This document shows, in pieces, positions 4,358-40,711 of a DNA stretch of 61,785 bases. A program made the position numbers and the translations under genes. The first letter of the stretch is position 1. Every line of letters begins with the position of its first letter. The notes under the pieces are model-generated. The model was not told where the DNA came from, made no database searches, and saw only the letters and a program-made list of their open reading frames with translations. The DNA comes from Patescibacteria group bacterium (GTDB lineage Bacteria > Patescibacteriota > Minisyncoccia > Phycocordibacterales > UBA1550), in contig JBBTZQ010000018.1 of assembly GCA_038061275.1 (NCBI GenBank), positions 1 through 61,785 on the forward strand, given 5' to 3'.

Positions 4358-4627
4358 ATGACAAAAGGCGTATCGAAAGTCCCGAAACCTGAATATGAAA
4401 AATGGCAGATTGTTGATGTCTATGAACGCGTTACTAGAGGGCCCTGCAAAGGAACTCCTCGAAAATCGTATCAAGGGCAAATAGCTGACATTCGGATTGT
4501 TCTTGAAAAGGTAGAATATCAGGTCCGTCGCATTGTGATTGGCAAAGATTTATCTGTTAAGGGTTATGAGAATTTCTCGGAACCAATTAAATGGATTTCT
4601 GAAGAACTCATCGAGCTCATCAAATGA
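4358..4627 (+). CDS. hypothetical protein
   Basis: 89-aa ORF with gggGAAAG SD-like sequence upstream. No recognisable motif. Confidence 0.4.
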   Translation: MTKGVSKVPKPEYEKWQIVDVYERVTRGPCKGTPRKSYQGQIADIRIVLEKVEYQVRRIVIGKDLSVKGYENFSEPIKWISEELIELIK

Positions 4628-4640
4628 TATAGAAACTTCA

Positions 4641-5090
4641 ATGGAGGCAACGATGCAAAGTTTTTTTACGGGAATAGTGACTTTCTTTACGAACTTTCCT
4701 TCTTTTGAAAGTCTTTTTTTTGAAAGCAGGTTTGGGAAACCGCTCTATCGCATAAATTTTTGCGATTTCCCAAGTTCAAAAAGCACTTTCAGTGATACTG
4801 AGTCAGAACTTATGGACGAGTATACGTTCGCACGATCCATGACGCGAGTTATTGCAAGCGGACAATGGGTGCTCACTGATGAGAATTTTTTGGTGTACAC
4901 TGAGCTCTTTCATGATTTAAAAATTGTTGGTGGATCCATTCCGCTCGATAAAAATCTCTTAAAACTGTCTTCCATGGGTCGCAAATATAACTACGAGGGG
5001 TACATACGCGAGTCTACAGAATTTTGTGTCAGACCACAGGAAATTAAGGAGAGAGGAAGGAATGCGATCGTAGAAATCAATTTTGAATGA
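4641..5090 (+). CDS. hypothetical protein
   Basis: ORF open from 4539 but overlapping the previous gene. ATG at 4641, or ATG at 4653 preceded by GGAGG, are the likely starts. Terminator follows. Confidence 0.45.
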   Translation: MEATMQSFFTGIVTFFTNFPSFESLFFESRFGKPLYRINFCDFPSSKSTFSDTESELMDEYTFARSMTRVIASGQWVLTDENFLVYTELFHDLKIVGGSIPLDKNLLKLSSMGRKYNYEGYIRESTEFCVRPQEIKERGRNAIVEINFE

Positions 5091-7036: not shown

Positions 7037-8080
7037 ATGTATCTTATGGGCAACACGAAACTACAAGTATATTTTATAGTTACCGTTCTTTTGGTCATCT
7101 CGGTCCTCACGTTTTTTATTTTTGAGCCTTTTCTCTCGGCTCTTGTACTTGCGATTGTGTGCGTGGTTGTGTTTAAACCTATTCACAAGAGGATCCTCGC
7201 TAATTTTGAAGAGTGGCCAGGACTTGCTGCGTTAGCAACGATTTCCGTCATCCTTGTCTTTGTGGTAACGCCTCTTTCGTTATTAGGCTCGCAGATTTTT
7301 CAGGAGGCGGGTCAAATATATTCATATTTGACCCACGAGGAAGGGAAAAGTGCTCTCACAAATGTGCTCAATATGGCATTGAGAGATATTGAAACGTACG
7401 TTCCTGTTGCTCAAGGATTTTCAGTGAACGTGGATCAATATATCAAACAGGGGCTTGAGTGGTTTCTTGGGAATCTCGGAGTTGTCTTCTCGAACCTTGC
7501 GAAAATTTTGTTAAGTTTGTTTGTATTTATTATTGCATTGTATTACTTGCTCAAGGACGGATACAAAATAAGAAAATTTATTGTTGCGCTTAGTCCATTG
7601 TCTGACGGTGATGACGAGGTGATTTTGAAAAAATTAGAAACTTCGGTTAATTCTATTGTGCGCGGTAGTCTCCTCATTGGATTTATTCAAGGAATTCTCA
7701 CGATGATCGGGTTTACGATTTTCGGTGTTCCCAACCCAATTCTTTGGGGAAGTATCGCAATGATAGCGTCACTTGTCCCGGGAATAGGGACTACGCTTGT
7801 CCTTGCTCCCGCTGTTTTGTTCCTCTTCTTGACTGGAGAGACGATATCGGGTTTTGGACTTCTTGCTTGGGGAATAGGTGCGGTAGGACTTGTTGATAAT
7901 CTTCTCGGACCAAAGCTTATTGGAAAGGGGATGCAACTTCATCCGCTCTTAGTACTCCTCGCGGTCCTTGGTGGACTAGCCTTCTTTGGGCCTATCGGAA
8001 TATTCTTGGGGCCACTTACGCTGAGCCTCCTCATTTCTATCTTAGAACTTCACTTTTCATTATCAAAACAAAAAAACTAG
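7037..8080 (+). CDS. AI-2E family transporter (PerM/UPF0118)
   Basis: 347-aa polytopic membrane protein. ..VNSIVRGSLLIGFIQGILTMIGFTIFGVPNPILWG.. is characteristic of AI-2E/PerM permeases. Confidence 0.8.
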   Translation: MYLMGNTKLQVYFIVTVLLVISVLTFFIFEPFLSALVLAIVCVVVFKPIHKRILANFEEWPGLAALATISVILVFVVTPLSLLGSQIFQEAGQIYSYLTHEEGKSALTNVLNMALRDIETYVPVAQGFSVNVDQYIKQGLEWFLGNLGVVFSNLAKILLSLFVFIIALYYLLKDGYKIRKFIVALSPLSDGDDEVILKKLETSVNSIVRGSLLIGFIQGILTMIGFTIFGVPNPILWGSIAMIASLVPGIGTTLVLAPAVLFLFLTGETISGFGLLAWGIGAVGLVDNLLGPKLIGKGMQLHPLLVLLAVLGGLAFFGPIGIFLGPLTLSLLISILELHFSLSKQKN

Positions 8081-33662: not shown

Positions 33663-34748
33663 ATGAGTCCCAAAGATTATTACAAAATTCTCGGTGTGGA
33701 AAAGAACGCCTCTCAAGATGAGATCAAAAAGGCGTTTCGTAAACTTGCACACCAGCATCATCCTGATAAAGGAGGCGATGAGAAAAAATTCAAGGAGGCG
33801 AGTGAGGCGTATCAAACTCTCTCCGATGAAAAAAAGAGAGCCGAGTATGATACACACGGATCCACAGGGGGAAATCGTGGATTCGGCGGTGGTGGAGGGC
33901 AGACCCAGGGAGGAGGTTTTGACTTCTCAGGGTTCGGTGGAGGGCAGGGTTTTGAAGGCGTCGACTTAAATGATATCTTTGGAGATTTTTTCGGTGGTCG
34001 CGGAGCACAAACATCTTCGCGGTCTCGCCGTGGCAGTGATGTTTCAGTGGATATCAAACTTACATTTTCTGAAGCTGTATTTGGCGTTGAGCGAAAGATC
34101 CGCATTGCCAAAACTTCGAAATGCGAAACGTGCGAAGGCTCTGGCGCAAAACCAAAAACTAAACTCATCATTTGTACTATTTGTAACGGAGTTGGTCGCA
34201 TTAGCGAGAACCGACAATCTGTCTTTGGCACATTTTCACACATGCGCGACTGTCCACATTGTGGTGGGTATGGAAAAATCCCAGAAGAGAAATGCACTAC
34301 CTGTAAAGGAGCGGGTGTAATGCGTCGCGAGGAGGAGATCAGTATTAAAATTCCTGCGGGGATTGAACACGGAGAAATGGTTCGCTTAATGGGGGCTGGA
34401 GAAGCTGTACAACATGGAACCACAGGAGACCTCTATGTGCGCGTTTCAGTAGCGCCACACCCCGTGTTCAAGCGCGATCATGAGAACCTTGTGATGAACC
34501 TCAGAGTCAAACTCACGGATGCTATTTTAGGAGCAGAGTATCCACTCGAGACTCTTGATGGACAGATCAAACTCTCTATCCCCAAAGGAATATCTTCTGG
34601 AGAAGTATTACGGGTAAAAGGGAAAGGTGTTCCTGTTGATAAAAAACATCGCGGGGACCTGTTTATTAAAGTTGAGGTAAAAAACCCAGCAAAACTCTCT
34701 CGCAAAGCTGAAAAACTCATCGAAGAACTCCGTGTGGAGGGGATATAA
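33663..34748 (+). CDS. dnaJ: molecular chaperone DnaJ
   Basis: J domain with HPD (..[11 protein letters not shown]..), G/F-rich linker, four CxxCxG zinc-finger repeats. Confidence 0.95.
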
Positions 34749-34760
34749 AACTACTAATAT

Positions 34761-34789
34761 TTGCAAATTTATTAAAATCAAGGTATAGT
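34761..34789 (+). promoter_or_regulatory. sigma70-type promoter (TTGCAA-N17-TATAGT) driving a small transcript
   Basis: Read directly, 13 nt after the dnaJ stop. Followed by GAGGAGG and two mini-ORFs. Confidence 0.5.
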
Positions 34790-34805
34790 TTTCGAGGAGG
34801 TATTA

Positions 34806-34835
34806 ATGGTTCAAGTATCGAGATTTTCTCGGTGA
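34806..34835 (+). other. 9-codon mini-ORF (MVQVSRFSR) with near-perfect SD
   Basis: GAGGAGG at 34794-34800, 5-nt spacer, ATG at 34806, TGA at 34833-34835. Could be a leader/regulatory uORF or chance. Confidence 0.25.
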
Positions 34836-34868
34836 CATTAACGCCATTCCATGAAAAAGAGGTGTGAA

Positions 34869-34958
34869 ATGAACATTATATCGTATGCTGGTCCTGGCGA
34901 AGGCACTTGCCCAGATTGTCCAGGTGACCCAGGTGATGCGCCCTGTGACGGTGGTTAA
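34869..34958 (+). CDS. 29-aa Cys/Pro/Gly/Asp-rich mini-protein MNIISYAGPGEGTCPDCPGDPGDAPCDGG (candidate precursor peptide)
   Basis: ATG at 34869 preceded by AGAGGT (5-nt spacer). An in-frame ATG at 34851 would add MKKRCE. The coding stretch is visibly more GC-rich than its flanks. A hairpin follows. Not in the ORF track (<60 aa). Confidence 0.3.
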   Translation: MNIISYAGPGEGTCPDCPGDPGDAPCDGG

Positions 34959-34972
34959 CTTTTCCACTAGTA

Positions 34973-35006
34973 AATATCCCCCGTTTTTTAATAGGCGGGG
35001 GATATT
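34973..35006 (+). terminator. 11-bp stem hairpin after the mini-ORF (possible terminator/attenuator)
   Basis: aatatcccccg (12-nt T-rich loop) cgggggatatt. No clean 3' T-tract, so function is uncertain. Confidence 0.45.
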
Positions 35007-35030
35007 CTATGTTAATATATGTAATATTGT

Positions 35031-37058
35031 ATGAATTTCCCAAAAACTCAAAAAGAGAATATTGAAGAAAAAATTTTTGACACAGTTATTAATGACCCCT
35101 ATCGATGGCTTGAGAATGGAGAAAGCAGAGAGACAAAAGAATGGGTTGATGCGCAAAATGCTTATATTGATCTGAATCTTCGGAATGAAACTTTTGAGAT
35201 GTTTTCTCGAGAGCTTACTCAAGATTTTAAAATTACTAATTTTTCGAACCCCATCCCTTGCAGAGGAAAATATTTCTTTTCTGAGAGACAGCCTGATGAA
35301 GACCAGTTTGTGGTTTATGTAAAAGAAGGAATTCACGGGACTCCTATCAAGCTCGTTGATCCTAACGGAATGAATTCAAGTAATACGGTCGCTATTGATT
35401 TTTGGTCAATATCAAGAACAGGGAAGTATTTGGTGTACGGCCTTTCGCATGGCGGTGATGAAATGCCGACCATGTACATTAAAGACATTGGTGCTGATAG
35501 TGCCCCCGAGCAAATTCCGCGCTGTAAAAATGCTCAGGCGAGATGGCTCCCTGATGATTCCGGCTTTTATTATAAAAGAAATCCTCAAGAAGGCGCTGTT
35601 CCTAGAAATGAAGAGCACCTACACTCGAAAGTCTATTTTCACCAAATAGGTCAAAATCCAGAAAACGACGAACTTATCTTTGGGGAGGGTCGTCCCAAAG
35701 ATGATATGCTTACATTGGCTATTTCGTTAGATGGAAGATATTTAGCTGTTGAGGCATCTAGAAATTGGACTGAAAATGAAATATATATTTATGATAGGGA
35801 GAACAAACAGACAACACCTTTAATAATTAATATCCCCGCACTTTCTTCGATTTTCTTTTTAGAAGACAAGGCGATACTCTATACAAATTACGAGGCAAAT
35901 AATTATCGAACTCTCTCTATGTCACTTAATTCTCTCTTTGTTCCCATTGAGCAATGGCAAGAATTAATTCCTGAAAGAGAGGTCCTTCTGCGATCAATTG
36001 TCCCAACTAGAGACAAGATTCTTGCTGATTATTTAGTGAACGCTTGCTCTAAAGCAGTAATCTTTGACCAACAAGGAAAAGAACAAGAAGAAATACCTCT
36101 TCCACCATACTCCAATCTCACTGGCATTTCTGCTCGTCGCGAAGAACATGAATTTTTTTATGGAGTAGAATCCTTCACATTTCCTAAGGTGACTTATCGA
36201 TATATCCCTGATGAACGTACGTTTGCTGAATATAGAAGAACACAAAGCTCGATAGATTCTGATGAATATATCGTCAAGCAGGAATGGTATTCGTCTAAAG
36301 ACGGCACTAAAATACCCCTATTTATTTTTCATAGGAAGGATTTAAAAACCAGCGGATTCCACCCAACTATTCTTTATGGATATGGTGGGTTTGGTCATTC
36401 ACTGACACCTTTGTTCAATAGAAATTTTATACCTTGGATTAAGCGAAACGGCATTTTTGCAGTTGCAAACATACGAGGAGGTGCAGAGTTTGGTGAAGAG
36501 TGGCATAAGCAAGGAATAAAAGAGAACAAGCAAAATAGCTTTGATGATTTTATTGCCGCTGCTGAGTACTTAATAAAGGAAGGATACACTGACCGTAGCC
36601 ACCTAGGTATTTTAGGAGGAAGTAACGGAGGTCTTTTGGTAAGCGCCGTAGAGACTCAAAGACCAGAACTCTTTAAGGCGGTATGTTCAAGGGTTCCACT
36701 TGCTGATATGGTGCGATTCCCGCTTTTTGGCATGGCTTCTCGCTGGGTTCATGAATACGGGGATCCAAATAACAAAGAGGATTTGCTCAGAATATTGAAA
36801 TGGAGTCCTTACCATACTACAAAGGAAGGAATAGAATATCCTGCCACCTTTTTTACAACTGCAGACAAGGACTCGCGAGTCAATCCTCTCCACGCTCGAA
36901 AAATGGCAGCCATGCTTCAATCAATCAATAAAAAAAACAGTATTTTTATTTTTACTGAAATGGAGGCTGGGCACGGTCCTGGCAAACCGATAACAAAAAC
37001 CGTAGAAAGCTGGGCGCTGATACTTACCTTCTTTGCAAAAGAGCTTGGTTTAGGTTAA
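35031..37058 (+). CDS. prolyl oligopeptidase (peptidase S9A family)
   Basis: N-terminus ..DPYRWLE.. and beta-propeller. The catalytic domain has ..GILGGSNGGLLV.. (GxSxGG nucleophile elbow) and ..DKDSRVNPLHARK.. and ..EAGHG.. Confidence 0.9.
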   Translation: MNFPKTQKENIEEKIFDTVINDPYRWLENGESRETKEWVDAQNAYIDLNLRNETFEMFSRELTQDFKITNFSNPIPCRGKYFFSERQPDEDQFVVYVKEGIHGTPIKLVDPNGMNSSNTVAIDFWSISRTGKYLVYGLSHGGDEMPTMYIKDIGADSAPEQIPRCKNAQARWLPDDSGFYYKRNPQEGAVPRNEEHLHSKVYFHQIGQNPENDELIFGEGRPKDDMLTLAISLDGRYLAVEASRNWTENEIYIYDRENKQTTPLIINIPALSSIFFLEDKAILYTNYEANNYRTLSMSLNSLFVPIEQWQELIPEREVLLRSIVPTRDKILADYLVNACSKAVIFDQQGKEQEEIPLPPYSNLTGISARREEHEFFYGVESFTFPKVTYRYIPDERTFAEYRRTQSSIDSDEYIVKQEWYSSKDGTKIPLFIFHRKDLKTSGFHPTILYGYGGFGHSLTPLFNRNFIPWIKRNGIFAVANIRGGAEFGEEWHKQGIKENKQNSFDDFIAAAEYLIKEGYTDRSHLGILGGSNGGLLVSAVETQRPELFKAVCSRVPLADMVRFPLFGMASRWVHEYGDPNNKEDLLRILKWSPYHTTKEGIEYPATFFTTADKDSRVNPLHARKMAAMLQSINKKNSIFIFTEMEAGHGPGKPITKTVESWALILTFFAKELGLG

Positions 37059-37120: not shown

Positions 37121-38224
37121 ATGAGGATTAGAACACCAAAAATTTATAAGGACAAAGAAGAACTTCCAGAGGGTACAGAGGTTGTTGATATTGTAGACTC
37201 TGCTCTCAAAGAACTTTTTATTGTCGAGAATCCACATTTTAAAAATAGTCCGGATAATCTTGGTGAGCAAATTAAAAATTTTTCATCAGAATATGAAAAG
37301 GACATAATCTGGGCGTATCTTCCATGGAAAAATATTGCTATTAGAATGCCGAGTGAAGCCGTTTATTATAAACTTCGTACAGCAAGAAACAGAAATATTA
37401 TAAGAGAAGAAGAACAAGAAAAATATAGAAACTGCCACGCAGGAATAGTCGGGCTGTCGGTCGGATCGTCAATATTAGCGTCGCTTGTAATGACTGGTGG
37501 TCCTAAAAAAATAAAGATTGCTGATTTTGATGTACTGGAGACAACAAACCTCAATCGTTTGAGAGGAAAAATTTTTGATATTGGGAAAGTTAAAACAGAT
37601 ATTGCAGCAAAAGAAACATGGGAGCTCGACCCTTTTGCAGATCTTGAGTTATGGCACGAAGGTGTTACGAAAGATACGATTGAGAATTTTATTTTGTCGC
37701 CGAAGCTTGATATTTTTATCGACGAGATGGATAGCATTCATATTAAGATTCTTTCCCGCATCATATGTAAAGAAAATAGAATACCTGTTTTAATGGCGAC
37801 AGACAATGGTGATAGTATAATTCTTGATGTAGAAAGATTTGATCTTGAGCCGGAGCGTCCTATTTTTCACGGTTTGCTCAACGACGATGACCAAAAAAAC
37901 CTTGAAGACCTCACGTTTAAAGATTGGCTCAAGCTCGCGACAAAAATTGTTGACGCTGAATACTTAACGCCACGAATGCAGGAATCTCTCTTGGATATAG
38001 GACTTAAAAAAATTCCCTCGGTTCCTCAGCTCGGCACTACTGCAGCTATCGCTGGTGCGGCGGTTGCTTATGCAGTTCGACAAATTTCCAACGGAGTTGC
38101 GCTCCCTTCTGGTAGATACACATTAGGACTGGAGTCAACTATATCTACAAATTATAATGAGGAAGAGCAGGTAGTTGAGCGCAAAAAAAGAACCGAGGAA
38201 TTTAAGAGCAAATTCATGAAATGA
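37121..38224 (+). CDS. ThiF/E1-like adenylyltransferase-fold protein (Rv1355c N-terminal-domain-like)
   Basis: ..WAYLPWKNIAIRMP...RTARNRNIIREEEQEK...GIVGLSVGSSILASLVMTGG..IKIADFDVLETTNLNR.. Rossmann-like E1 core with the GLSVG variant I associate with Rv1355c/MoeY-type proteins (from memory). Confidence 0.65.
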   Translation: MRIRTPKIYKDKEELPEGTEVVDIVDSALKELFIVENPHFKNSPDNLGEQIKNFSSEYEKDIIWAYLPWKNIAIRMPSEAVYYKLRTARNRNIIREEEQEKYRNCHAGIVGLSVGSSILASLVMTGGPKKIKIADFDVLETTNLNRLRGKIFDIGKVKTDIAAKETWELDPFADLELWHEGVTKDTIENFILSPKLDIFIDEMDSIHIKILSRIICKENRIPVLMATDNGDSIILDVERFDLEPERPIFHGLLNDDDQKNLEDLTFKDWLKLATKIVDAEYLTPRMQESLLDIGLKKIPSVPQLGTTAAIAGAAVAYAVRQISNGVALPSGRYTLGLESTISTNYNEEEQVVERKKRTEEFKSKFMK

Positions 38225-39648
38225 AAAAAATACAAGGAATTGAAGTAGCTATCAACACACTTAAATGGGCTGCCAAAACAGTACCTGCCTATAGAGAATT
38301 TCTGAAAAAAAATAATTTTCAGATTAAAAATATAAAGACAGTCGATGATTTTTCCGCTGTCCCTTTGATGGATAAAGATAATTATATTAAAGCATACCCT
38401 TATTTAGACCTTTTTCCGCTTGGTAAAGTACCTTCAGTTATATCATCAAGCTCGGGTTCGTCAGGAACTCCATTTTATTGGCCGCGCGGACGAGAACAAG
38501 AAATCGCGGGAGGGAATTTGCACGAACCAATCTTTAGAGATATTTTTAAGATAGGAAAGAAGAGAACTCTTGTCGTTAATTGTTTTTCAGCAGGAACATG
38601 GATTGCAGGAGCATTTACTACAGAATCATGTAGGCATTTGGCTGAAACAAAAGGATATAATATTTCCGTAATTCCACCAGGAATTGAAAAAGAAGATATT
38701 TTATCAATTTTGAAGAGACTTGCGCCCTTGTTTGATGTTGTTGTTATTGCAGGATACCCTCCATTTTTGATGGACGTGGTTACTGAAGCTTCATCACGAG
38801 ATATACCTCTAAAAAATATGAACATTAAGTTTATATTTGCAGGAGAAAATTTTTCTGAGAAATGGCGACAAGTAATATGCGACATTGCATTTATTGAGGA
38901 TATTGAGCACTCTGTGGCGAGTGTTTATGGTACAGCGGACGCTGCAATGTTGGGACACGAGACACCTCTTTCAATTTTTATTCGTCAAAAAGCAAATAAA
39001 AATAAAGCGTTCTTTAAAGAATTTTTTGGAGATCTGACATTTTTGCCAACACTTGTACAATATCAACCTGACCATATTTATTTTGAAAATATTAATAATG
39101 AAATTGTATTCACTGTTAAAGGAGGAATTCCACTTGTGCGCTACAATATTCGAGACCGAGGAAGAATTTTTTCTCATACTGAGATACGAGCGATACTGAA
39201 AAAATACAAGTACGATAAAGAGATAGCGCATGAATTAAAAAAATGGGAAATGCCATTTGTGAGCCTTCACGGAAGAAATGATGTTTCCGTGACATTTTAT
39301 GCCTTAAACATGTTTCCTGAAAATTTCAAATACGGACTTGAGGACACTCGTATTTCGGAATATGTAACAGGGAAATTCGTAGTTTCTTCTAAAACTACAA
39401 GTGACCAAAAAACACAAGAACTTCATTTGTCTATAGAGCTTTCTCCGAACATTCATAAAAAAACGATCCCCATTGCCGTAATAGAAAAGATTATCGTAGA
39501 GAGGTTGCGTAACTCAAATACTGAGTATCGTAAACTTCATGATACTTTGGGAAAAAAAGCTATTCCTAAAATAAAACTCTTGCCATATTCAGACCCAGTG
39601 TTTATTCTGAAGAAGATAAAACATTCTTGGATAAAAAAGGAAATATAA
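38221..39648 (+). CDS. PaaK-like / coenzyme F390 synthetase-like adenylate-forming enzyme (ANL superfamily)
   Basis: ATGA overlap with the upstream gene. ..SSSGSSGTPFYWPR.. phosphate-binding loop and ..YGTADAA.. motif in PaaK-like order. 475 aa. Confidence 0.65.
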   Translation: MKKIQGIEVAINTLKWAAKTVPAYREFLKKNNFQIKNIKTVDDFSAVPLMDKDNYIKAYPYLDLFPLGKVPSVISSSSGSSGTPFYWPRGREQEIAGGNLHEPIFRDIFKIGKKRTLVVNCFSAGTWIAGAFTTESCRHLAETKGYNISVIPPGIEKEDILSILKRLAPLFDVVVIAGYPPFLMDVVTEASSRDIPLKNMNIKFIFAGENFSEKWRQVICDIAFIEDIEHSVASVYGTADAAMLGHETPLSIFIRQKANKNKAFFKEFFGDLTFLPTLVQYQPDHIYFENINNEIVFTVKGGIPLVRYNIRDRGRIFSHTEIRAILKKYKYDKEIAHELKKWEMPFVSLHGRNDVSVTFYALNMFPENFKYGLEDTRISEYVTGKFVVSSKTTSDQKTQELHLSIELSPNIHKKTIPIAVIEKIIVERLRNSNTEYRKLHDTLGKKAIPKIKLLPYSDPVFILKKIKHSWIKKEI

Positions 39649-39649
39649 T

Positions 39650-40711
39650 ATGAAAGAAACGATAAAAAAAATACTTGAATACGCAGTGTATGCTCCGTCT
39701 GGAGACAATTCTCAGCCATGGCGTTTTGTCGTTAAGGGAAATAAGATATTTCAGTATAATCTTCCGTTTGAAGATAATATTTATTTGAATTATCAACAGA
39801 GTGGATCATACGTCTCTCACGGTGCGGTAATAGAAAATATATTTATCGCAAGTTCTCATTTTGGTTATGCTACTAATGTAGAATTGTTTCCTGAAAACAG
39901 TGAACAGGATTTAGTAGCTATTCTGGATCTACAAGAAGCGAATATATCTATTGATCCAGAATTTGAATGTATAAAGAGTAGGTGTGTAAACCGCAGGCCG
40001 TATGATTCACGCGAGATTGGAAAGGAGTTACTTGAGAGTATTAAAGCATCTATTAAAAAAGAGTTCGATTTTCAAGGACTATCATTCATCACAGACCGAG
40101 GATCTATTAAGGAAGTTGGGGTCGCTGCAACAGTCATGGAGCGTATTGCTCTTCGGAATCCTGTTATTCATAAATTGTTTTTTTCTGGAATTATTTGGAC
40201 TGATAAAGAACACAGACAAAAGAAAAAAGGACTCTATATAAAAACACTCGAATTGCCACTACCGGTTCAGTACCTCTTTAGACTTTTTAAGCATTGGCCA
40301 GTCATGTCGTTTTTGGGACGCATTGGGTTCCCCGAAAAAGCAGCGAACGGAAATGCGGAAATCAATGCTAAGAGTGCCGCATTTGGGATAATTACGACCA
40401 AACAATCATCCCCGAAGGATTTTATTCTTGCTGGAAGGGTGATGCAGAGAATTTGGTTAAAGACCACAAGCTTAGGTTTGTCTTTGCAGCCAGTGACCGG
40501 ACTTCTTTTTTTAGCACACAGAGTGAAAGATAATCAGACTGAAGGATTATCTCTAATTCAAACAGAAATGATCAAAGATGGAATTTCAGTAATAGAAAAG
40601 AAATTTAGTTTGAAAGACGAAATTCCAATAATGATGTTTCGGATTGGGTATGCTAAAAAACCTACAGCTAACTCATTCCGGATGGAACCCAAAGTGATTT
40701 TTAAAGAGTAG
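39650..40711 (+). CDS. nitroreductase-superfamily FMN oxidoreductase (Acg / Rv1355c C-terminal-domain-like, double-length)
   Basis: Starts 1 nt after the upstream stop. ..ILEYAVYAPSGDNSQPWRFVV.. signature. The length of about 350 aa is typical of Acg-type tandem nitroreductase folds. Confidence 0.65.
   Translation: MKETIKKILEYAVYAPSGDNSQPWRFVVKGNKIFQYNLPFEDNIYLNYQQSGSYVSHGAVIENIFIASSHFGYATNVELFPENSEQDLVAILDLQEANISIDPEFECIKSRCVNRRPYDSREIGKELLESIKASIKKEFDFQGLSFITDRGSIKEVGVAATVMERIALRNPVIHKLFFSGIIWTDKEHRQKKKGLYIKTLELPLPVQYLFRLFKHWPVMSFLGRIGFPEKAANGNAEINAKSAAFGIITTKQSSPKDFILAGRVMQRIWLKTTSLGLSLQPVTGLLFLAHRVKDNQTEGLSLIQTEMIKDGISVIEKKFSLKDEIPIMMFRIGYAKKPTANSFRMEPKVIFKE

Follow-up and report, generated by a model that had tools for sequence, protein, structure and literature searches.

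A conserved, previously unannotated mini-gene adjacent to prolyl oligopeptidase genes in Parcubacteria

A 61,785-nt stretch of DNA from a Patescibacteria group bacterium (contig JBBTZQ010000018.1 of assembly GCA_038061275.1; hereafter the window) carries a 29-codon open reading frame (ORF) between dnaJ and a gene for a prolyl oligopeptidase (POP). By comparing the window with related loci we show that this ORF is a real, conserved, protein-coding gene with its own expression signals, and that it is strictly adjacent to the POP gene. The new element is a conserved, previously unannotated mini-gene family that is tightly linked to POP in Parcubacteria; gene-encoded peptides coupled to S9 peptidases were already known. 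Patescibacteria (the candidate phyla radiation, CPR) make up a large share of bacterial diversity, and the small genes in their tiny genomes are largely unannotated. The mini-gene is housed in the 282-nt gap that separates POP from dnaJ (33663-34748), which closes grpE-dnaK-dnaJ. The elements of the locus are as follows.

34761..34789, + strand: promoter of the mini-gene, consisting of a -35 box TTGCAA (34761-34766), a 17-nt spacer and a -10 box TATAGT (34784-34789)
34796..34848, + strand: 5' stem-loop, paired over 34799-34847 with an apical CGAGA-UUU-UCUCG; holds GAGGAGG (34794-34800) and an upstream ORF (uORF, 34806-34835)
34859..34864, + strand: Shine-Dalgarno (SD) sequence GAGGTG, 4 nt 5' of the ATG at 34869
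34869..34958, + strand: 29-aa peptide gene encoding MNIISYAGPGEGTCPDCPGDPGDAPCDGG, with the invariant core C14 P D C P G D P G D x P C x G28
34973..35006, + strand: stem-loop read as a terminator, 14 nt past the stop codon; possibly leaky, as it has no U-run
35010..35018, + strand: extended -10 element TGTTAATAT, the putative POP promoter, with 12 nt between the end of its hexamer and the POP ATG
35031..37058, + strand: prolyl oligopeptidase POP, MEROPS family S9A, 675 aa, Pfam Peptidase_S9_N and Peptidase_S9

When the sequence was re-read, the promoter, GAGGAGG, uORF, SD sequence, ORF and hairpin named in a first-pass annotation of this DNA were all found where it had placed them. Its description of a self-contained mini-gene, with a promoter, an SD sequence, a 29-aa ORF rich in Cys, Pro, Gly and Asp and a strong hairpin, was upheld.

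Homologues were sought by an exhaustive HMMER search of 1.84 billion representative proteins, using as the query a 35-aa version of the peptide that begins at an upstream ATG. The search yielded two called homologues of 29 aa (P0241 and P0242), with E = 1e-8 and 2e-7; their sequences are MNTALYAGPGEGTCPDCPGDPGDPPCDGG and MKMFLFAGPGEGYCPDCPGDPGDPPCDGG. A profile of doubled peptides returned the same two proteins and one chance match, P0243. Contigs encoding POP homologues, together with a scan for the back-translated core in public genomes and metagenomes, supplied a further seven loci in which an ORF occupies the equivalent position. Eight loci were available with DNA context, i.e. the window and these seven, while P0241 and P0242 were available as protein only. 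The peptides of the seven additional loci are listed below.

L018: MNKLSSINLGGEGTCPDCPGDPGDPPCDGG
L019: MNMILYIGPGEGTCPDCPGDPGDPPCDGG
L010: MNAKPGVCFGGTCPDCPGDPGDPPCDGEVFLD
L024: MKKDLSICMGTCPDCPGDPGDPPCDGEGS
L017: MKMIAPCYADPNCPDCPGDPGDAPCGGE
L014: MKLSYTDPNCPDCPGDPGDPPCGGE
L022 (divergent; L022 3818-3916): MKLTNLCSAGPGDDSPSYPDPHGPDGDGSQQE

The family comprises ten distinct peptides of 25-32 aa (the window peptide and nine more). A core of CPDCPGDPGD-x-PC-x-G, with 13 fixed residues, is invariant in nine of the ten, and these nine have three invariant Cys in C-x2-C-x8-C spacing and four Asp. Each peptide contains 5-6 prolines, present in Cys-Pro, Asp-Pro or Xaa-Pro bonds with a non-Pro residue next, and DPP and PPC motifs occur in most members. 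Unlike the invariant core, the N-terminal 5-12 residues vary in both sequence and length. The C-terminal tails also differ between members (GG, GE, GEGS or GEVFLD); five of the ten end in Gly-Gly (the window peptide, P0241, P0242, L018 and L019) and the others in GE, GS or LD. All three core Cys residues are gone from the divergent L022 peptide, leaving one N-terminal Cys, and it has kept five Pro at similar spacing together with the Asp/Gly-rich character. The L022 gene has a matching promoter, SD sequence, terminator and POP neighbor, identifying it as a positional homologue. Its 5' untranslated region (UTR) has GGGAATGTTCCCGTG in common with that of L017. The peptide is acidic and is predicted to be unstructured, and a low-confidence AlphaFold model of the 35-aa version (predicted local distance difference test score of 47) contained no secondary structure.

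Coding potential was assessed from substitutions within the core. Over 16 codons in six loci, pairwise differences fell at 134 third codon positions as compared to 8 first and 17 second positions, and in the core alignment (TGY CCN GAY TGY CCN GGN GAC CCN GGN GAY) variation was restricted to wobble bases. This comparison of synonymous with non-synonymous variation, which the first-pass annotation had named as a check, gave 134 third-position differences versus 25 at first and second positions, indicating constraint at the protein level. The same annotation had taken the GC-rich ORF in AT-rich flanks as a sign of constraint; the contrast was confirmed (GC of 0.49-0.56 across the 29-aa ORF versus 0.22-0.37 in the flanks), and the third-position excess shows that the constraint acts on the protein. 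Mean amino-acid identity was 87% in the ORF frame versus 42-52% in the remaining two sense frames. One antisense frame, which shares its wobble positions with the sense frame, was equally conserved (88% identity). Coding in this frame was ruled out because a start codon is missing and a stop lies right at the core in most loci; 5 of 6 loci contain no ATG, GTG or TTG upstream of or in the core, where the frame is bounded by a stop. The sense frame has an SD sequence and an ATG in all eight loci, with GAGG, GGAG or AAGGA located 5-10 nt before the start, and no frameshift or in-frame stop was found in the peptide ORF of any locus. The 35-aa version, which would start at the ATG at 34851, was also ruled out: this start has no SD sequence, the ATG is not kept in L018 or L019, and the called homologues contain 29 aa.

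Gene callers skipped or mis-called the true 29-aa gene in public assemblies. A wrong-frame 49-aa ORF (window 34885-35034, + strand) was called over the peptide gene in L007 and L008, and a 57-aa antisense ORF was called at L010 4784-4957 (- strand), the window counterpart of which spans 34803-34967 (- strand). Several frames stay open because the codons for Gly, Pro and Asp are GC-rich. Searches of Pfam, NCBIfam and PDB with five family members gave no significant match; the single Pfam match was that of the window peptide to FhuF_C 2Fe-2S, with E = 0.0097 and 16.2 bits, which is below the cut-off of 20.5. The core DNA pattern had no match in viral contigs. In the searchable literature the motif was absent, and nothing was found on this POP system in the context of Parcubacteria, Patescibacteria or ribosomally made peptides that are post-translationally modified (RiPPs).

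An S9A POP gene was next to the peptide gene in all eight loci, on the same strand and 71-138 nt downstream, and POP was the single gene common to all of them. Identity among the linked POPs is 38-78%, and at least five different neighborhoods are represented among the loci. Upstream, the window and L018 have dnaJ, L010 and L022 have an ABC exporter, L014 has a divergently oriented TrmB-type regulator and L017 has a 157-aa ORF. Downstream of POP we found ThiF, murA, an ABC exporter or other genes, depending on the locus. The L014 POP is 38-40% identical to the others, while the L014 and L017 peptides are almost identical; the L022 POP is 73% identical to the L017 POP. Five of seven sampled near homologues of the window POP carry the peptide. 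As the adjacency persists across POPs that are 38% identical and in different neighborhoods, these data argue for a functional tie between the peptide and POP.

Two loci bear on whether the pair moves together. Direct repeats of 137 bp (94% identical; 4554-4690 and 7047-7183) bracket exactly the peptide-plus-POP segment of L010 (4691-7046). The repeat unit corresponds to the 3' end of the upstream ABC exporter gene, and the repeats resemble a scar left when recombination or an insertion introduced the peptide-POP pair. An 81-aa ABC C-terminal remnant follows POP in L022 (7120-7362). From the repeats and the remnant, it seems that peptide and POP genes move or recombine together. The pair has an MsbA-like ABC exporter beside it in L010, L014 and L022, and these exporters are mutually orthologous (50-79% identical). 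A radical SAM gene is situated 2 kb from the pair in L010 and in no other peptide locus. In the window, POP is followed by a ThiF-like gene, a PaaK-like ligase gene, a nitroreductase gene and then a histidine kinase gene; among the peptide loci, ThiF and nitroreductase genes were found in the window alone, the L018 contig ending just past POP. The top homologues of the window proteins were all from metagenome-assembled genomes of Patescibacteria, the contig is of the Parcubacteria type, and an identical copy of the window DNA is present in a groundwater assembly (Hainich well H41; ENA ERZ1292625, Hain_H41_01um).

The partner enzyme matched Peptidase_S9_N (PF02897) at 1e-68 and Peptidase_S9 (PF00326) at 6e-52. 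It contains a GGSNGG serine motif at residue 529 and EAGHG near the C-terminus, and no signal peptide was evident by eye at its N-terminus. The nearest solved structures were the hydrolytic prolyl endopeptidases 3IUJ and 2BKL at 1e-130, and the porcine enzyme matched at 1e-111. The macrocyclases PCY1, OphP and GmPOPB were matched end-to-end at 1e-92, 1e-83 and 1e-75, respectively, and oligopeptidase B at 1e-60. By these matches the enzyme is an S9A prolyl oligopeptidase with predicted propeller and hydrolase domains, closer to prolyl endopeptidases than to oligopeptidase B.

The mini-gene promoter matches the consensus at 9 of 12 positions, which by itself is at the level of chance (18 sites versus 17.1 expected in 7 kb). 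A TTGCAA or TTGCAT -35 box and a -10 box are co-positioned in L018, L019, L010, L022 and L024, and the -35 box is present in six of the eight loci including the window. The consensus promoter claimed in the first-pass annotation is a match of chance frequency, yet the keeping of its position in five other loci lifts it above chance. As the -10 box ends at 34789, the transcript is predicted to start near 34796, within GAGGAGG. A 9-codon uORF with a perfect SD sequence (MVQVSRFSR-stop) had been proposed at this site. This proposal failed on comparison, since L018 has neither the ATG nor the SD sequence and the single in-frame ATG of L019 lies inside the -10 box. We consider the uORF and GAGGAGG to be incidental because neither is conserved as an ORF or SD sequence and both lie within a covarying stem-loop.

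RNAalifold analysis of four sequences gave a structure of 19 pairs, with 92% of cells pairing. Ten of these pairs had changed on both sides, as compared to 4.2 ± 1.6 in shuffled alignments (0 of 500) and 0-3 in slid controls. A six-sequence alignment gave 18 pairs, 11 of them with compensatory changes. Covariance model R1, which describes this 5'-UTR stem-loop, scored 65 bits at the window site. From these data we conclude that the predicted transcript begins with a covarying stem-loop (34796-34848). A stem-loop a few nucleotides from the 5' end is a classical mRNA stabilizer, and the 5' stem-loop may stabilize the mini-gene mRNA in this manner. The Rfam search returned no gathering-score match to the stem-loop in the window, with chance-level hits in 34700-35100 (E = 0.9-2.4), and a regulon search with R1 across the window and 13 loci recovered only the sequences from which the model was built. 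A second copy of the stem-loop is present at L010 7220-7273 (51 bits with R1), 5' of an uncalled ORF of 67 aa. This hydrophilic ORF (L010 7293-7496; MGKYSENTGASGDSSSQAAHAEHDARDH...FWSSIFGK) has its own SD sequence and terminator, and the caller had annotated an 80-aa ORF in a different frame.

The hairpin at 34973-35006 was predicted by RNAfold to contain 14 pairs with an 11-bp Watson-Crick core, and the stretch from the stop codon to POP (34956-35033), which is dominated by this hairpin, had a folding energy of -23.3 kcal/mol (z = -3.9). The strong hairpin reported earlier is therefore present as claimed, and a hairpin of different sequence occupies the equivalent place in all eight loci. U-tracts follow the orthologous hairpins in L018, L010, L014, L017 and L024. 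A simple terminator scan did not call the window hairpin because its tail (AUAUUCUAUGUU) is without a U-run. Since this tail is U-poor, termination in the window may be leaky. Across loci, 16 to 55 nt separate the stop codon from the terminator. Exactly one TGnTAnnnT is present in each of the eight loci between the hairpin and POP, 12-33 nt before the ATG; the six-locus alignment shows no variation at the T, G, T, A, A and T of TGnTAnnAT. We read this element as POP's own extended -10 promoter, which would produce a nearly leaderless mRNA. The POP gene is without an SD sequence (35019-35033), and its predicted transcript start is ~5-6 nt from the ATG. As POP has no SD sequence and the small upstream gene has a strong one, this organism seems to use both SD-led and nearly leaderless initiation.

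Our preferred interpretation is that the peptide serves POP as a dedicated ligand, is cut by it at prolines and is exported where an ABC exporter gene is present. We hold this interpretation tentatively, at somewhat less than an even chance, and POP binding and cleavage, the identity of the products and export are inferred. The mini-gene would be transcribed apart from POP as a unit comprising a sigma-70-type promoter, the 5' stem-loop, an SD sequence, 29 codons and a hairpin terminator. The peptide would then act in trans as the dedicated partner of the cytoplasmic POP encoded directly downstream. Action in trans rather than in cis is favored because the mini-gene has its own promoter and terminator and TGnTAnnnT precedes POP in every locus. 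POP would bind the 25-32-aa peptide and cut after its 5-6 conserved prolines; the predicted products of the window peptide are MNIISYAGP, GEGTCP, DCP, GDP, GDAP and CDGG. POP substrates have a size limit of ~30 residues, which these peptides just reach, and oxytocin and vasopressin exemplify Cys-Pro-Xaa as a classical site of POP cleavage. The peptide fits a POP ligand or substrate on account of its length of 25-32 aa, its 5-6 prolines, its predicted lack of structure and the retention of Pro in L022 despite the loss of Cys. The peptide or its fragments would be the functional product and would be exported in lineages with an adjacent MsbA-like ABC exporter, which is plausible because orthologous exporters flank the pair in L010, L014 and L022. 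Overall, the locus would constitute a minimal precursor-protease(-exporter) module.

Several observations weigh against this interpretation. The closest relatives of the window POP, those of L012 and L020 (65-69% identity), have no peptide gene and are interleaved with the peptide-linked POPs; L012 has the same dnaJ-POP-ThiF synteny as the window with the peptide gene absent. POP looks like a housekeeping enzyme. Neither the 61 kb of the window nor the sequenced flanks of L017 contain an ABC exporter. No modifying enzyme is conserved beside the peptide-POP pair in the eight loci, so nothing points to a modified product. The family is also small, with 10 sequences, several of which came from related groundwater and sediment samples. 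Finally, a mere cleavage substrate would not require three Cys and three Asp to be strictly invariant; a metal site or a tight-binding inhibitor would account for this equally well. Since cleavability alone leaves the Cys/Asp invariance unexplained, an inhibitor or regulator and, less so, a metal or redox function retain some probability.

A broader proposal, which we regard as doubtful, is that in genome-reduced Patescibacteria the module of mini-peptide, POP and sometimes ABC exporter makes a housekeeping POP the sole processing enzyme. Such a module might release Cys/Asp-containing tri- to hexapeptides or a Pro-terminated macrocycle, and these products might leave the cell to serve as a signal, as a carrier of metal or thiols or as an effector acting on the host cell. 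If this were true, the module would be a maturase-free peptide-product system and the first peptide natural-product-like pathway specific to CPR bacteria. To our knowledge, CPR genomes contain few recognized secondary-metabolite or signaling systems, and the natural substrates of bacterial prolyl oligopeptidases are, as far as we know, mostly unknown. Although gene callers missed the peptide gene, purifying selection on it is clear, and it stays linked to a single enzyme even where the POPs are only 38% identical. Should POP process the peptide, the pair would provide a physiological substrate or regulator for bacterial prolyl oligopeptidases, and precursor plus general peptidase would be the simplest known genetically encoded peptide-product system.

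Peptide processing by POP-type enzymes is known for amatoxins (MSDIN/POPB; MSDIN precursors are ~35 aa) and orbitides (PCY1). S9 peptidases also participate in other ribosomal-peptide pathways, i.e. FlaP for a class III lanthipeptide, OphP for omphalotin, MpgP for clavusporin and WprP2 for WprA2, and WprP2 cuts its repeat-bearing precursor at several sites (PMC12957482). The window locus resembles these systems in that a very short gene-encoded peptide is genetically tied to an S9 peptidase of the post-proline type, and the multi-site cutting by WprP2 is like that proposed for the window peptide. However, the known systems have either a maturase (lanthionine synthetase, radical SAM enzyme or methyltransferase) or a specialized macrocyclase paralogue, neither of which is conserved here, and they use a leader or follower recognition sequence, whereas in this family 3-7 residues follow the last Pro. 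The window POP, unlike the macrocyclases, has its best matches among ordinary hydrolytic prolyl endopeptidases of bacteria (1e-130) and is interleaved with peptide-less POPs. On these grounds the peptide does not fit the pattern of a POP macrocyclase substrate, as in MSDIN/POPB, presegetalin/PCY1 and OphMA/OphP, the tails being CDGG, CGGE or CDGEVFLD and the POP not a specialized paralogue.

The suggestion in the first-pass annotation that the peptide is a RiPP precursor pointed in the right direction, as a prolyl oligopeptidase, which that annotation had not noticed, proved to be the only conserved neighbor. The remainder of that suggestion gained no support: no maturase is conserved, and the supposed leader, MNIISYA, varies in sequence and length. 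A variable N-terminus combined with an invariant 'core' is the reverse of leader/core logic, and the peptide does not fit a RiPP precursor in the strict sense.

The layout of the locus is also reminiscent of the precursor-first operons mccA-mccB, pqqA-pqqB and nisA-nisB, in which a hairpin follows the precursor gene and the enzymes are expressed by read-through. An arrangement of precursor, hairpin and enzyme leads to far more precursor than enzyme transcript. In each case, as here, a tiny and often unannotated gene with a strong SD sequence is followed by a stem-loop and then by the processing enzyme on the same strand. The enzymes of the mccA, pqqA and nisA operons depend on read-through of the hairpin, whereas the extended -10 element after the hairpin suggests a separate promoter for POP, and the adenylation, radical SAM or dehydration chemistry of the mccB, pqqB and nisB type has no counterpart at this locus.

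In a first alternative, the adjacent POP is inhibited or regulated endogenously by the peptide, which would plug the enzyme as a slow substrate or pseudo-substrate, perhaps with a metal or disulfide to stiffen it. Expressed from its own regulated promoter, it would keep the cytoplasmic peptidase under control. We consider this unlikely, although the evidence of POP adjacency is the same as for the favored ligand. Protease-inhibitor gene pairs are known, such as staphopain-staphostatin and AprA-AprI. The invariant 13-residue core is more easily explained by a precise fit to the enzyme than by cleavability, and separate promoters would allow the ratio of peptide to enzyme to be set independently. 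Cys-rich peptides have been reported as POP inhibitors (PMC13076805, PMC8311463). However, the core of L022 is mostly changed while its POP remains 73% identical to that of L017, and peptide-less POPs of the same clade apparently manage without an inhibitor. The adjacent exporter in three loci would also be unexpected for a cytoplasmic inhibitor.

It is less likely still that the peptide is a free-standing metal or redox mini-protein, built from a CPxCPG knuckle, a third Cys and Asp ligands, and that its link to POP reflects mere co-regulation or shared ancestry of the locus. The first-pass annotation had offered a small metal-binding peptide as one possibility. In its favor, 9 of 10 members have the three invariant Cys in C-x2-C-x8-C spacing and four Asp, and the weak match to FhuF_C 2Fe-2S points the same way. 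Rubredoxins have CPxCG knuckles and then GDP motifs, and the window peptide, Cys- and Asp-rich with CPDCPG followed by GDP, is similar. Rubredoxins and zinc ribbons have two CxxC knuckles supplying four Cys ligands, whereas the peptide family has a single CxxC plus one Cys, three invariant Cys in all, and no match to these families. The idea was also weakened by L022, in which the core Cys are lost but Pro, Asp and Gly are kept. The remaining members are without a Pfam, NCBIfam or PDB match, and AlphaFold showed no fold, though metals are beyond its modeling. Adjacency to POPs of 38% identity in varied neighborhoods instead favors a functional tie to POP.

We also considered the ORF as a cis-acting leader peptide, in which translation of Pro, Gly and Asp codons or nascent-chain arrest would control the terminator and thereby POP transcription. 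TnaC-tnaA and SpeFL-speF are examples of sensory leader peptides upstream of catabolic enzyme genes, and the mini-gene is like them in being a conserved peptide of 24-34 codons directly upstream of a degradative enzyme gene, with conservation of the amino-acid sequence beyond mere codon content. A short ORF and a terminator-like hairpin do lie just upstream of POP on the same strand, POP has no SD sequence, and a terminator is present between ORF and POP in all eight loci, mostly with a U-tract. The richness in Pro codons survives even in the divergent L022, and DPP and PPC motifs are present in most members. However, unlike TnaC and SpeFL, no alternative antiterminator pairing was seen in the folds, the spacing from stop to terminator (16-55 nt) and the C-terminal tails are variable, and an extended -10 element is conserved between the terminator and POP in every locus. 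In addition, codon sensing would leave the invariant Cys and Asp unexplained, and POPs of the same clade exist without a leader (L012 and L020). We judge a leader peptide of this type improbable, and an attenuator was rejected on the basis of the missing antiterminator, the variable spacing and C-termini and the intervening promoter element.

A further candidate was a substrate of the downstream ThiF-like (37121-38224), PaaK-like (38221-39648) and nitroreductase (39650-40711) gene products, which would act as an E1 and dehydrogenase of the thiazole/oxazole-modified microcin (TOMM) or microcin type on Cys or on the C-terminal Gly-Gly. This is very improbable. The three genes do follow POP in the window and five of ten members end in Gly-Gly, but the other members end in GE, GS or LD, the peptide and POP occur without the trio in L010, L014, L017, L022 and L024, and the trio occurs without the peptide in L012, L002 and L004. 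Searches for the peptide by tblastn and regular expression in distant loci with PaaK-like homologues (L001-L004) found nothing, and the peptide is therefore not part of the ThiF/PaaK-like/nitroreductase cluster. Least probable of all is a structured small RNA with incidental ORFs, as the first-pass annotation had alternatively proposed: the region folds somewhat better than shuffles (z = -2.2) and its 5' part is a genuinely covarying stem-loop, but this view is contradicted by the codon periodicity of core substitutions (134 versus 25), by the SD sequence and ATG in 8 of 8 loci, by the lack of frameshifts and in-frame stops at any locus and by the absence of an Rfam match.

The ThiF-like/PaaK-like/nitroreductase trio of the window (37121-40711) is a split version of the Rv1355c-type fusion of ThiF and nitroreductase; its match to NF005901 was 298 bits for the N-terminal half and 169 bits for the C-terminal half. 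The PaaK-like adenylate-forming ligase had no Pfam match and 1469 homologues, and the trio is widespread in Patescibacteria. Further copies are located at L002 5834-9419, L004 4800-9416 and L012 4142-9079. The companions of the trio vary and include an M19 dipeptidase, a Glu/Leu/Phe/Val dehydrogenase, an aromatic ammonia-lyase or POP. These features suggest that the trio belongs to an uncharacterized pathway of amino-acid or peptide-derived compounds. In L012, the cluster of which is closely related to that of the window, an aromatic amino-acid ammonia-lyase gene (PF00221; 6697-8289) is inserted between the PaaK-like ligase and nitroreductase genes.

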